A stretch of 64,000 bases of DNA from Escherichia phage vB_EcoM-RPN187: the sequence record OL770074.2, one strand, 5' to 3'. A model generated the notes under the pieces. That model had not been told where the DNA came from, made no database searches, and saw only the letters and a list, made by a program, of their open reading frames with translations. A program made the translations under genes and the position numbers. Positions 29,528 to 62,112 of the stretch are shown piece after piece (position 1 is the stretch's first letter; each line of letters starts with the position of its first letter).

Positions 29528-29793
29528 TAGTATTTTTCCTCAGGTCGAAATACTGCACGACATGCCCACATGCTGGCTTCTTTTAGATGTTGCTTAGCAT
29601 ACTTAAGAGCCTGCACTGCATCCATATCTTCTTTGGTTTGTTGCTCTGATTCATTTTCTTTCAAGATATATGCTTCTTCAATCAGAGCATCAAACATCAA
29701 TCCAAGACGGACTTCTGCATCTTTAATAGCGTTCACTTTACTGATTTTATCATCGGTATGCGGCTTGTAGCCTTTGATGTCTTCAATCGACAT
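29527..29793 (-). CDS. hypothetical protein (about 88 aa)
   Basis: Internal ATG with GAGGAAA SD (MSIEDIKGYKPH...); the track ORF is longer. Confidence 0.35.
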   Translation of the reverse strand: MSIEDIKGYKPHTDDKISKVNAIKDAEVRLGLMFDALIEEAYILKENESEQQTKEDMDAVQALKYAKQHLKEASMWACRAVFRPEEKY

Positions 29794-30007
29794 AAGGAAT
29801 TTCCTCATCGGTGGCAAGGTCATATTCGACCAATTGGATAGGCTCATTAATACCATATCCGCGTACAGTGATATCGGTTGACGGATATTTTCCAGTAATA
29901 TCACCAATTCTAAATGATTCAATGAATGATTGCTCGCCTGAGCAACTAAACCAGGCGGCAAAACATTTTAAAACATCTTCAGACCCTTCTATAATCAATT
30001 TAGCCAT
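29783..30007 (-). CDS. hypothetical protein (74 aa)
   Basis: Coding-strand ORF; its stop overlaps the next start. Confidence 0.35.
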   Translation of the reverse strand: MAKLIIEGSEDVLKCFAAWFSCSGEQSFIESFRIGDITGKYPSTDITVRGYGINEPIQLVEYDLATDEEIPYVD

Positions 30008-30369
30008 TATAGGCTCTCAGTAAAGGTACGAGCGATAACGTCGCGCTGCTGTTCCGGAGTCAGAGAGTTAAAGCGAACTGCATAACCGGATACACGGATG
30101 GTCAGCTGCGGATATTTTTCCGGATGCTTAACTGCATCTTCCAGAGTTTCACGACGCAGAACGTTAACGTTCAGGTGTTGACCACCTTCAATTTTAACTT
30201 TAGGTTGATGTTCAATTTCAATTTCACGGGCATTCAAACCGTAGAAAATTTCTGGGTCTACAATAGCGTCTTCTTTAAAAGTCTTAGAGACAATAATCCG
30301 GGCTTGAGCACCGTCTTCAAAATAAATAGTGCCTTTATGTACACCTTCAAGAATTTGATATGCTTTCAT
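30007..30369 (-). CDS. grcA: autonomous glycyl-radical cofactor (GrcA/YfiD-like; T4 Y06I family)
   Basis: C-terminal [59 protein letters not shown] with glycyl-radical motif RVSGY; 3' half of the gene is markedly GC-richer than the surrounding phage DNA. Confidence 0.8.
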
Positions 30370-30375
30370 ATAACC

Positions 30376-30684
30376 TCAATTAGAAAATAAATTTATCCAA
30401 GATTTTTCTTTAATCAAAAATGGGTCGGAATTAAACGCCATTAAACTTTGGGTGATTAATCCCTTAAATGGTCCATCAATAAATTCCATTTTGAAATGTG
30501 GAATACTAGTCATCAACCGTGCATTAGGAGCAGTACAAAGAACCTGCTGACCTGCGAACGGACCTTTAGTCAAACGATATCGTTTAGGTTTAAAATGGTA
30601 AATCTCGTAATTTTCTACAAGAGCCCTTTTATTGCATACTGGGCTGTTATAACAATACTCAAAAACTTCAATAGTGGTCATCAT
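30376..30684 (-). CDS. hypothetical protein (about 102 aa)
   Basis: Coding-strand ORF; internal start MMTTIEVFEY gives an ATGA-type junction. Confidence 0.35.
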   Translation of the reverse strand: MMTTIEVFEYCYNSPVCNKRALVENYEIYHFKPKRYRLTKGPFAGQQVLCTAPNARLMTSIPHFKMEFIDGPFKGLITQSLMAFNSDPFLIKEKSWINLFSN

Positions 30685-41907: not shown

Positions 41908-41983
41908 TGGTCGAGGCAGTAGGGGTCGAACCTACGACCTAGGACTTAGAAGGTCCTTGCTCTTCCTTCTGAGCTATGCCTCG
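41908..41983 (-). tRNA. tRNA-Arg (anticodon UCU)
   Basis: Hand-folded cloverleaf: acceptor CGAGGCA/TGCCTCG, D-arm GCTC/GAGC, anticodon loop CUUCUAA, T-arm GTAGG-TTCGACC-CCTAC, encoded CCA. Confidence 0.8.
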
Positions 41984-41987
41984 GATT

Positions 41988-42062
41988 TGGCGGACATGCA
42001 TGGATTCGAACCATGGACCAATTGATTAACAGTCAACTGCTCTACCACTGAGCTACACATCC
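41988..42062 (-). tRNA. tRNA-Asn (anticodon GUU)
   Basis: Acceptor GGATGTG/CATGTCC (two G-U pairs), D-arm GCTC/GAGC, anticodon stem GTTGA/TCAAT with loop CUGUUAA, T-arm CATGG-TTCGAAT-CCATG, CCA. Confidence 0.7.
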
Positions 42063-42066
42063 AAAT

Positions 42067-42153
42067 TGGTTGGGAGTGATGGAGTCGAACCACCTGAGTC
42101 GCAATGACAATGGATTTACAGTCCACACCGCTACCTCTACGGGATAACTCCCC
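42067..42153 (-). tRNA. tRNA-Tyr (anticodon GUA), class II with long variable arm
   Basis: Anticodon loop CUGUAAA; T-arm GGTGG-TTCGACT-CCATC; CCA encoded; the acceptor stem pairs only with a mismatch or bulge, so the 5' boundary is uncertain. Confidence 0.55.
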
Positions 42154-42162
42154 AAATTAATT

Positions 42163-42237
42163 TGGTGGCCCTGGGTGGAATTGAACCACCATCTGGCGAT
42201 TATGAGTCGCTTGCTTGAACCTTCCAGCTACAGGGCC
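42163..42237 (-). tRNA. tRNA with anticodon CAU (Met or lysidine-type Ile)
   Basis: Acceptor GGCCCTG/CAGGGCC, anticodon loop CUCAUAA, T-arm GGTGG-TTCAATT-CCACC, CCA; occupies the T4 tRNA-Ile position. Confidence 0.7.
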
Positions 42238-42238
42238 T

Positions 42239-42314
42239 TGGTGCTGATTGACGGAATCGAACCACCGACCTTCTCATTACAAGTGAGTTGCTCTACCTAC
42301 TGAACTAAATCAGC
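42239..42314 (-). tRNA. tRNA-Thr (anticodon UGU)
   Basis: Acceptor GCTGATT/AATCAGC, D-arm GTTC/GAGC, anticodon loop CUUGUAA, CCA encoded. Confidence 0.75.
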
Positions 42315-42319
42315 AAAAC

Positions 42320-42410
42320 TGGCGGAGGCGATAGGATTTGAACCTATGAGTCGCCGGAGCGACTGCCGGTTTTCAAGACCGGTGCATTAAACCACTCTGC
42401 CACGCCTCCA
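42320..42410 (-). tRNA. tRNA-Ser (anticodon UGA), class II
   Basis: Acceptor GGAGGCG/CGCCTCC, anticodon stem CCGGT/ACCGG with loop CUUGAAA, long variable arm, 91 nt. Confidence 0.8.
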
Positions 42411-42411
42411 G

Positions 42412-42485
42412 TCTCCATACAAGGATTTGAACCTTGGACCTCCTGATCCCAAATCAGGCGCTCTACCAAACTGAGCTACACGGAG
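42412..42485 (-). tRNA. tRNA-Pro (anticodon UGG), CCA not encoded
   Basis: Acceptor CTCCGTG/TATGGAG, D-arm GCTC/GAGC, anticodon stem CCTGA/TCAGG with loop UUUGGGA, T-arm CAAGG-TTCAAAT-CCTTG; one nucleotide separates it from tRNA-Ser. Confidence 0.75.
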
Positions 42486-42495
42486 TAAATTAAAT

Positions 42496-42569
<74 letters not shown>

Positions 42570-42574
42570 AAATT

Positions 42575-42661
42575 TGGTGCGAGAAGTGGGACTCGAACCC
42601 ACAAGGAAATCATTCCGCAGCATTTTAAGTGCTGTGCCTTTACCAATTTGACCATTCTCGC
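42575..42661 (-). tRNA. tRNA-Leu (anticodon UAA), class II
   Basis: Acceptor GCGAGAA/TTCTCGC, anticodon stem CAGCA/TGCTG with loop CUUAAAA, variable arm GGAA-TGAT-TTCC, T-arm GTGGG-TTCGAGT-CCCAC, CCA. Confidence 0.8.
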
Positions 42662-42662
42662 G

Positions 42663-42735
42663 CTGGGAATAAAGGACTCGAACCTTTGCATCCTGGAATC
42701 AAAATCCAGTGCCTTACCAACTTGGCTAATTCCCA
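42663..42735 (-). tRNA. tRNA-Gln (anticodon UUG), CCA not encoded
   Basis: Acceptor TGGGAAT/ATTCCCA, D-arm GCC/GGC, anticodon stem CTGGA/TCCAG with loop UUUUGAU, T-arm AAAGG-TTCGAGT-CCTTT; one nucleotide from tRNA-Leu. Confidence 0.75.
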
Positions 42736-60532: not shown

Positions 60533-62112
60533 GTAATAACAATACATACCAACACGTTTCAAACAAATCCATTTACGTTGAATTCGACCCCGTAGGGTCG
60601 AATTTTCCAGATACAGTCACTAATGTCCAAGCCGCATTAGCTGCTATTTCTCCTTCAGGTGTTAATGGCGTACCGGAAGCAACAACTACTACACCAGGAA
60701 TTATTCAAATAGCTACTCCACAAGAAGTTATTGATGGATTAGATAATAGTAAAGCTGTTACTCCGGCAACACTGAATGCTCGTCTACAATATCCTAATGC
60801 AACCGAAACTCAATACGGCTTAACTCGTTATGCTACTGAAGATGAAGCAGTAACCGGAGCTATTGACGATGCATCAATTACTCCGCTTAAATTGAATCAA
60901 AAAATAGACAATGTATTTCAGACAAAAGTGTCAACAGAAGCAACAAATGGTGTAATTAAAATTTCAACTTCTGCCGCGGCATTAGCTGGTTCTGACGATA
61001 CAACGGCAATGACTCCGTTAAAAACGCAACAATTAGCAATTAAACTTATTTCGCAAATTGCTCCAAATAATAGTGACGCCACCGAATCTATTACAGGTGT
61101 TGTTCGTTTGGCTACAGTTGCTCAAGCACAGCAAGGCACCCTGCGTGAAGGATATGCAATTTCACCTTATACCTTTATGAATTCAGTAGCGTCAGAAACT
61201 AATAAAGGTGTCGTTAAACTAGGGACACAGACTGAAGTAAATAGTAACAACTCTTCAGTTGTAGTGACCGGTGCAACATTAAACGGGCGTGGGGCTACAA
61301 CTTCTTTACGTGGAGTTGTTCGTTTAACTACACAAGCTGGTAGTCAATCAGGTGGTGATGGTTCTTCTGCCCTTGCTTGGAATGCTGATGTTATCCACCA
61401 ACGAGGTGGACAAACTATTAACGGCACGCTTCGCATTAATAATACGTTGACGGTTGGTTCTGGTGGAGCTAATATAACTGGTAATGTCAATATGACAGGT
61501 GGTTATATTCAAGGCAATCGTATTGTGACTCAAAATGAATTAGACCGAATTCTTCCAGTTGGCGCTATTACAATGTGGGCTGCGGATAGTTTACCGAGTT
61601 CTGACTGGCGCTTCTGTCACGGTGGGACTGTTTCTGCTTCAGAATGTCCGGTATATGCTTCCAGAATTGGGACACGATATGGTGGTAGTTCTTCTAACCC
61701 GGGCTTGCCTGATATGCGTGGATTATTTGTTCGCGGCTCAGGTCGTGGTACCCATTTAACTAACCCTAATGTTAATGGTAATGACCAATTCGGTAAGCCT
61801 CGTCTGGCGGTAGGTTGTACCGGTGGATATGTTGGTGAAGTGCAAAAACAACAGATGTCATATCATAAGCATGCTGGTGGTTTTGGCGAGCATGACGATT
61901 CCGGTGCATTTGGTAATACTCGTCGTTCAAACTTTGTTGGTACTCGTAAAGGACTTGACTGGGATAACCGTTCGTATTTTACTAACGAGGGATATGAAAT
62001 TGATCCAGCGTCTCAGCGTAACTCTAAATATACCATGAATCGTCCAGAATTAATTGGAAATGAAACTCGCCCATGGAATATTTCTTTAAACTATATCATT
62101 AAGGTAAAATAA
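60529..62112 (+). CDS. 12: short tail fibre gp12
   Basis: 527 aa, the same length as T4 gp12; repetitive Thr/Gly/Ala-rich fibre sequence. Confidence 0.9.

Follow-up and report, generated by a model that had tools for sequence, protein, structure and literature searches.

How does a phage gene come to end in DNA that is letter for letter that of its host? The question is raised by vs.6 of Escherichia phage vB_EcoM-RPN187 (sequence record OL770074.2). The window analysed here, i.e. the whole stretch of 64,000 nucleotides (nt), contains vs.6 at positions 30007..30369 on the minus strand, an open reading frame with an ATG start which encodes a GrcA/YfiD-like "spare part" protein of 120 amino acids, the orthologue of phage T4 vs.6 (Y06I). 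A reading of the window from its letters alone (in the following the sequence-only reading) had interpreted the GC-rich 3' half of the gene as a recent capture of the C-terminal module of host grcA onto a phage N-terminal segment. The comparisons reported here indicate that vs.6 contains a tract derived from the host gene, the acquisition of which appears to be recent on the host time scale. In our view it is probable that the gene is an old phage homologue of grcA with a spare-part function, the conserved 3' domain of which was overwritten by host grcA at least twice, most likely through homologous recombination.

A host-identical tract in the 3' half of vs.6

The nucleotide alignment to E. 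coli grcA proposed in the sequence-only reading revealed a longest exact run of 175 nt (window positions 30017..30191, minus strand, corresponding to grcA nt 200-374), which encodes the structured glycyl-radical domain (EGGQHLNV...RTFTE). Codons 61 to 117 are free of mismatches to E. coli (0/171), and two differences are found in the last three codons, which together with the stop codon (30007..30018, minus strand) read GAG AGC CTA TAA in the window and GAA AGC CTG TAA in E. coli. Directly upstream of the tract, the identity to grcA collapses. On the protein level, the last 60 residues (EGGQHLNV...TFTESL) are all identical to residues 68-127 of E. coli GrcA, and 62 of the last 65 agree (PKVKI versus PEVRV), close to the near-identity proposed in the sequence-only reading for these 65 residues. 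When the whole window was compared to 5,426 complete E. coli genomes by megablast, this tract was the only match, and it is present in all 5,426 genomes.

Because the 60-residue C-terminal module hardly varies among Enterobacterales and Pasteurellaceae, identity of the proteins alone says little, and the DNA is the informative layer. In the 171 nt of codons 61 to 117, a cryptic Escherichia lineage is separated from E. coli by 2 differences, Citrobacter by 13 and Klebsiella pneumoniae by 21, and the identity of E. coli and Salmonella in the tract segment amounts to 83%. The peptide is nearly the same in phages RB43 and Matisse, yet the nucleotide identity of these phages to E. coli in this segment is 81-83%, so that codon adaptation cannot explain the match seen in the window. 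The chance of a 171/171 match at a background identity of 0.82 is approximately 1e-15 by our own arithmetic (0.82^171). Among the hosts (Escherichia, Citrobacter, Klebsiella, Salmonella and Yersinia), the 5' part of grcA and the tract diverge concordantly, and this 5' part of the host genes is without a phage counterpart at the DNA level. Since both parts of host grcA are concordant, and since the base composition and the codons of the tract are host-like and outliers in the phage, the host is the donor.

The compositional step inside vs.6 is real and unusual. The G+C content (GC) amounts to 50.0% for the 3' 180 nt of the gene and to 34.4% for the 5' 180 nt; at third codon positions (GC3) it is 43% in the 3' half and 22% in the 5' half. 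For 180-nt segments across the whole window, a mean GC of 37.6% (standard deviation 4.0%) was calculated, with only 0.7% of these segments at 50% or above, nearly all of them in the tRNA cluster at 41.9-42.7 kb. The earlier impression that the 3' half is richer in GC than the 5' half and the flanks was confirmed by these values. In the codon-usage check, CTG was found for five of six leucines (9% usage in the phage) and CCG for all three prolines (15%), which is host-like, while the overall codon-fit score of the 3' half lies at the 11th percentile of 60-codon segments only. The tRNA cluster (41908-42735, minus strand) comprises ten genes (Arg-tct, Asn, Tyr, Met, Thr, Ser, Pro, Gly, Leu-taa and Gln). 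Another GC-rich spot with about 51% GC is located near position 61560.

Affiliation of the protein and origin of its N-terminal half

The assignment of vs.6 as a GrcA-like gene orthologous to T4 vs.6/Y06I, already made in the sequence-only reading, is borne out by family profiles, structure and synteny. The Gly_radical domain (Pfam PF01228) was recognized on residues 59-101 with 67.4 bits (cut-off 22.2), the NCBIfam model TIGR04365 ("autonomous glycyl radical cofactor GrcA"; InterPro IPR011140) aligns to residues 18-120 with its positions 23-126 of 126, and the phrog_1209 profile covers the full length of the protein (E=1.8e-62, positions 1-120 of 121). Residues 26-127 of the E. coli YfiD structure (PDB 6OWR) align to residues 20-120 (E=1.4e-42); residues 696-759 of the pyruvate formate-lyase (PFL) structure 1H16 align to the protein as well. 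Based on the alignments to 6OWR and 1H16, the glycyl-radical site is predicted at Gly95 (GGT codon, computed position 30085..30087, minus strand) within RVSGYAV (residues 92-98), equivalent to Gly734 of PFL and to the RVSGYAV glycine of YfiD, for which the role of the radical residue has been described (PMC8683613). The gene encodes a stand-alone small protein with its own start and stop rather than a fragment of a large glycyl-radical enzyme. The protein shares 94% identity with Tequatrovirus copies such as that of T2, and the T4 orthologue is named GrcA in RefSeq. Gene and function were known before, both from T4 vs.6/Y06I and from the many phage records with a gene annotated as GrcA.

The 5' half of vs.6 (codons 1-60, 30190..30369, minus strand) is AT-rich and belongs to the phage lineage according to GC, BLASTP and synonymous divergence (dS). 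In BLASTP, the encoded N-terminal half is 35% identical to YfiD residues 28-67 over 40 amino acids (E=3e-6), and both the GrcA profile and the 6OWR structure align from about residue 18-20 onwards. These alignments identify the N-terminal half as a diverged GrcA N-terminus and not as an unrelated phage segment. The proposed fusion of a host module to a phage N-terminal segment had to be abandoned for this reason; a replacement within an existing gene (gene conversion) fits better. In YfiD, the N-terminal half is disordered and aids activation as well as the binding to cleaved PFL (PMC8683613).

Distribution and age of the tract in T-even phages

The tract is carried by approximately 630 phage records, among them T4, T2 and RB69, with 0-4 mismatches to E. 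coli; the alignments begin at grcA nt 155-162 or at nt 200. An identity of at least 95% to E. coli grcA was found for 486 records with the tract, while 146 Mosigvirus-type records are at 90-95%, only because their alignments extend further upstream. In T4 and T2, one of the 171 positions differs from E. coli, in RB69 two. The window phage is itself a Mosigvirus (RB69-like T-even), the vs.6 region of which is 99.7% identical to that of Escherichia phage AV112. The mosaic is common to Tequatrovirus and Mosigvirus and not particular to this phage. With respect to the sequence-only reading this means that a recent host origin is retained (0/171 mismatches, where Citrobacter has 13 and K. pneumoniae 21), but not its attribution to this one genome. 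With 1/171 mismatches in T4, the identity of the window to host grcA is essentially no higher than that of the T4 orthologue, an outcome which that reading had named as speaking against its own proposal; the host origin stands all the same.

The age of the tract was assessed with five Mosigvirus and six Tequatrovirus copies of vs.6. Between the two genera, a dS of 0.40 and 12 fixed differences were determined for the 5' half, compared to a dS of 0.044 and no fixed difference for the tract, in which only private variants are scattered around the E. coli sequence. The identity of window and T4 is 60-85% in neighbouring genes, 87-93% in the 5' half of vs.6 and 98-100% in the tract, and falls to 60-73% in the downstream gene vs.5. 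Genus-specific fixed differences reach gene nt 170, i.e. at most 13 nt from the tract, and resume at nt 357-360. Since 0-3 synonymous changes were seen where a single capture before the split of the genera predicts approximately 8-9 per lineage, and since the respective sites are free to change in Jiaodavirus (see below), the tract is younger than this split.

Either each genus was converted separately from E. coli, or a nearly coextensive patch moved between the genera. Separate conversion is favoured, because the differences between the genera persist right beside the tract, because RB69-type phages are reported as excluded from recombination with T4-type phages (PMC6024577), and because phage variants are shared with Escherichia alleles. 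Five of the 15 synonymous phage variants are the same, in site and base, as five of the eight variants seen among 25 natural grcA tracts of the Escherichia type, where about one coincidence is expected (P about 0.0003-0.001). The shared variants are suggestive of multiple E. coli donors.

Individual copies of vs.6 show further peculiarities. The last three codons differ patchily by lineage, reading GAG AGC CTA in the window, GAA AGT TTG in T4 and GAG AGT CTG in another copy (L095). Variable end-points of conversion or selection for the translation of vs.5 could be behind this variation; that the change of GAA to GAG near the stop codon creates a Shine-Dalgarno sequence for vs.5 is speculation, and T4 keeps GAA. 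The T4 reference (NC_000866) carries CAT in place of CGT at codon 73, inside the tract, resulting in R73H (LRHETLEDAV). This exchange is absent from E. coli and from the other 13 Tequatrovirus and Mosigvirus copies examined. T4 Y06I is the biochemically characterised product. In Escherichia phage OES_C-2 (L178), a 6-nt in-frame deletion has shortened the EIEIE repeat immediately before the tract by two residues, leaving a protein of 118 amino acids; the tract of this phage has 0/171 mismatches to E. coli.

A second host: the tract in Klebsiella phages

The 5' half of vs.6 in Jiaodavirus, a genus of Klebsiella phages, is clearly orthologous to that of the window. The tract of these phages has a GC of 55-58%, starts at the same codon position (GAA GGC GGT) and is closest to K. 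pneumoniae grcA. The fewest mismatches to K. pneumoniae were counted in L183 (4/171), followed by PSE-D1 (5/171), pKp20 (7/171), KpV477 and Ra_O-1 (11/171 each) and PKO111 (18/171), whereas these copies differ from E. coli at 20-31 positions. The reverse is found in the E. coli phages, with 0-4 mismatches to E. coli and 21-22 to K. pneumoniae. An exact run of more than 100 nt is shared by pKp20 and K. pneumoniae. At the 21 sites distinguishing the two hosts, which include two amino acid differences (LEDAVKH in E. coli, LLDAVEH in Klebsiella), the E. coli phages have the E. coli state except for isolated singletons, and the Jiaodaviruses mostly have the Klebsiella state. The 5' junction is located at codon 60/61 in both groups. 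The segments thus cluster by host, with the E. coli type in Tequatrovirus and Mosigvirus and the K. pneumoniae type in Jiaodavirus, which on comparative grounds indicates that host sequence has replaced phage sequence at this junction at least twice independently; counting separate events in the E. coli phages, there were probably three or more replacements.

Synonymous sites in the Jiaodavirus tracts decay freely, which argues against an intrinsic synonymous constraint on this part of the gene. For each of the modules flanking vs.6 in Jiaodavirus (L005, L174-L177, L182 and L183), there are two or more strongly divergent versions, with approximately 150 differences per 300 nt. The presence of such versions in otherwise near-identical phages points to breakpoints of phage-phage recombination at or beside vs.6.

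Two lines of evidence from these phages were discarded. Jiaodavirus had been regarded as proof of recurrent conversion, since pKp20 and KpV477 have identical 5' halves and differ at 9/171 positions of the tract (Fisher p=0.001). This was withdrawn, because the flanks are mosaic, the diversity of the tract is not clearly above that of the flanks within a module, and the differences from K. pneumoniae are biased from GC to AT. Phage alleles shared with hosts of the LLDAVEH type (19/25) were uninformative, as 51 of the 57 third positions vary in the host panel.

Proposed origin of the mosaic and alternative explanations

T4-like phages possess a full-length grcA homologue of ancient origin. Its N-terminal half has diverged, while the C-terminal domain was kept nearly invariant by its function, and this functional constraint holds the 3' domain at about 75% DNA identity to the host gene or above. 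During infection, the recombination system of T-even phages could then pair phage DNA with chromosomal fragments of host grcA and copy host sequence into the phage gene, where both the pairing and its frequency are what we infer from the comparisons. The donor was E. coli for Tequatrovirus and Mosigvirus and a K. pneumoniae-like host for Jiaodavirus. Each conversion would restore perfect homology and make the next one easier, and conversion has probably taken place more than once.

The spare-part function is predicted for the window protein because it is so similar to the Tequatrovirus copies and because its C-terminal domain is identical to that of YfiD. T4 Y06I and E. coli YfiD rescue oxygen-cleaved PFL, as stated in a passage of PMC8683613 that cites Wagner 2001. 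By analogy with these two proteins, the host activase PflA would install the radical on Gly95 of the C-terminal domain. The activated domain would plug into host PFL cut by oxygen at Gly734, and the production of acetyl-CoA and formate would be restored. As infection shuts off host expression, GrcA and PFL might not be replaceable in a micro-aerobic gut infection, and the phage would supply the spare part. The phage gene would in this way keep the fermentative energy metabolism of the host running after host expression has stopped.

Whether the tract also acts as a standing homology bridge between lytic, host-DNA-degrading T-even phages and the host chromosome, being reset by recurrent conversion from the current host, is a more tentative matter, for which arguments are nearly balanced and incline slightly towards the negative. 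If true, T-even phages would recombine with the host chromosome sufficiently often in nature for an imprint specific to the host species to remain, and the tract would update the spare part to the PFL system of the host by itself and record the recent host species.

Several points weigh against overwriting of vs.6 by host grcA as set out above. The evidence is comparative throughout, and a benefit of vs.6 to the infecting phage is presumed. The equivalog cut-off of TIGR04365 is not reached by the window protein (159.1 versus 170 bits), a shortfall due to its diverged N-terminal half. The 5' junction is sharp, with perfect identity up to the end of homology, unlike a simple patch conversion flanked by homology; a single illegitimate event in each lineage, or selection acting against longer tracts, might have produced it. 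The test of shared polymorphisms could be inflated by shared hot spots or shared tolerated synonymous codons, and a phage-to-phage transfer of the tract alone between genera is possible. For Jiaodavirus, a single Klebsiella-derived event followed by decay from GC to AT (amelioration) suffices, and it is in the E. coli phages alone that recurrence is suggested, by the contrast in dS together with the shared polymorphisms.

The same data bear on how many captures have to be assumed. A single capture in the common ancestor of Tequatrovirus and Mosigvirus, followed by vertical inheritance, would explain why all E. coli-type tracts have the same junction and encode the same protein, and the near-identity could then be ascribed to strong purifying selection on protein and codons, since the C-terminal domain is almost invariant in Enterobacterales and Pasteurellaceae. 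This is improbable, given that dS in the tract is 9-fold below that of the adjacent 5' half (0.044 versus 0.40), that no fixed differences stand against 12, and that 0-3 instead of about 8-9 synonymous changes per lineage were seen at sites which are free to change in phages, as is evident from Jiaodavirus, RB43 and Matisse. Somewhat more weight is given to a single capture in one E. coli phage lineage, after which co-infecting phages would have passed the tract on to the other genus by recombining with each other, although we regard this as unlikely, too. T-even phages have mosaic genomes that readily recombine, mosaicism is apparent in the Jiaodavirus flanks of vs.6, and vs.6 as a whole is more similar between window and T4 (87-93% in its 5' half) than the neighbouring genes are (60-85%). 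The borders of the transferred patch, however, would have to coincide with the limits of host homology to within about 13 nt at either end and in both genera, RB69-type phages are reported to be barred from recombining with T4-type phages (PMC6024577), and several of the phage variants match distinct natural E. coli alleles.

Explanations dispensing with a host donor fare worse. The tract uses codons preferred by E. coli (CTG, CCG, CGT and AAC), as would be expected from convergence by codon adaptation or from host reads contaminating the assembly. Convergence would have to account for an exact run of 175 nt covering every synonymous site, while Salmonella, with a similar codon usage, reaches only 83%. 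An artefact is contradicted by the presence of the tract in about 630 phage genomes which were sequenced independently, the references of T4, T2 and RB69 among them, and by a reading frame which runs on without a break from the phage-type 5' half and overlaps the start of vs.5. Both variants of this explanation are therefore given practically no credence. Equally negligible is a transfer in the opposite direction, by which E. coli would have acquired the 3' end of grcA from T-even phages. Nothing specific speaks for it, even though identity alone formally gives no direction. The distances of the 5' part of grcA and of the tract are concordant across five host genera, GC and codons of the tract are host-like and outliers in the phage, all 5,426 E. 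coli genomes carry the tract, and the tract of the Klebsiella phages is Klebsiella-like.

Overwriting of an old phage gene by host DNA, which we prefer, has consequences beyond vs.6. A letter-perfect run of 175 nt as the only host homology in 64 kb, with a Klebsiella-type counterpart in related phages, is unusually clean evidence of a homology-guided replacement by host sequence in virulent phages that destroy host DNA, and host-to-phage replacement in vs.6 is experimentally tractable. The tract should not be misread as contamination, and it is a possible marker for host prediction in T4-like phages.

Neighbouring genes and other GrcA-like sequences

The genes are arranged in the order vs.8-vs.7-vs.6-vs.5-vs.4 between denV and regB, collinear with RB69 and T4; the synteny of vs.7, vs.6 and vs.5 is conserved in the window, RB69, T2 and T4. 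Downstream of vs.6, vs.5 (29783..30007, minus strand) encodes an orthologue of 74 amino acids assigned to phrog_1986, the function of which is not known. It is translationally coupled, its start overlapping the stop codon of vs.6 (TAATG), and marks the 3' limit of host homology. The upstream neighbour vs.7 (30376..30684, minus strand) encodes an orthologue of 102 amino acids, also of unknown function, identified by family profile (phrog_2049) and synteny.

No close host match was found in the host panel for the GrcA-like genes of Slopekvirus, RB43, Karamvirus, Aeromonas phages and T5-like phages. Their 3' segments are 72-83% identical to grcA of the panel, which is near synonymous saturation and therefore argues against a recent host tract. 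A contig of 19 kb (L120, IMGVR_UViG_2706794630_000006), the tract of which is 91% identical to Yersinia grcA, was considered as a third case of host tracking and rejected, since its GrcA is full-length and of the host type (MITGIQITKA...); this contig, classed as viral, probably consists of bacterial sequence or of a fragment adjacent to a prophage. Two further candidates for phage-type copies (L191 and L212) turned out to be truncated host genes. Several IMG/VR contigs (L110-L115, L121 and L130-L131) encode phage GrcA-like C-termini with residues of the Pasteurellaceae type (NPDKY, ITRTFTESL). Their DNA is 81-84% identical to Haemophilus or Gallibacterium grcA, and no near-identical tract is present; they may represent older host matching in other phage-host pairs.

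Among the bacterial records, three are unusual. CP125156.1 (L172), labelled "plasmid unnamed2", is a K. pneumoniae replicon of 5.37 Mb and evidently the chromosome. The grcA gene of K. aerogenes NCTC10006 (LR134122.1, L173) is frameshifted, encodes 108 amino acids and is annotated as "Pyruvate formate-lyase", probably due to an assembly error. NZ_JBQPOM010000029.1 (L040, "Vagococcus sp. WN89Y") carries, despite its Firmicute label, an Enterobacteriaceae-type grcA of the LLDAVEH type with 91% protein identity to E. coli, for which contamination or mislabelling is the likely reason.

Comparison with known systems

The closest relative with a characterised product, T4 vs.6 (Y06I), is located at the same position between regB and denV, has the same length of 120 amino acids and contains the same E. 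coli-identical tract (1/171 mismatches). It differs from the T2 protein by one residue and from the window gene by fixed differences at about 12 nucleotides of the 5' half, R73H and the last three codons; no functional difference is known. E. coli GrcA/YfiD has identical C-terminal 60 residues including RVSGYAV, and its presumed partners are the same (PflA and oxygen-cleaved PflB), whereas the N-terminal half of the window protein is about 35% identical to it and 7 residues shorter. The GrcA-like genes of Tequintavirus, RB43, Slopekvirus, Karamvirus and Aeromonas phages share phrog_1209 and the C-terminal domain with vs.6 but lack a recent host tract. In the literature searched, which is incomplete in coverage, a host-templated tract in vs.6 was not found described; the T4 sequence has been public for decades.

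Outside the GrcA family, the photosynthesis genes psbA and psbD of cyanophages offer the nearest parallel. Intragenic recombination between host and phage copies of these genes was reportedly described by Zeidner in 2005. It was found together with a patchy %G+C and host-range-specific clustering (Sullivan 2006, PMC1484495). As in vs.6, an auxiliary metabolic gene of T4-like phages is concerned, in which the patchy %G+C signals segments exchanged with the host copy. In contrast to psbA and psbD, vs.6 has a single, sharply bounded tract of 175 nt with 100% host identity, only a direction from host to phage is seen, and the phages concerned are enterobacterial T-evens which degrade the DNA of their host. 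The function of vs.6 adds nothing new to what is known; of value is the evolutionary signal of the host-copied tract, which comes closest to the mosaics of the psbA type.

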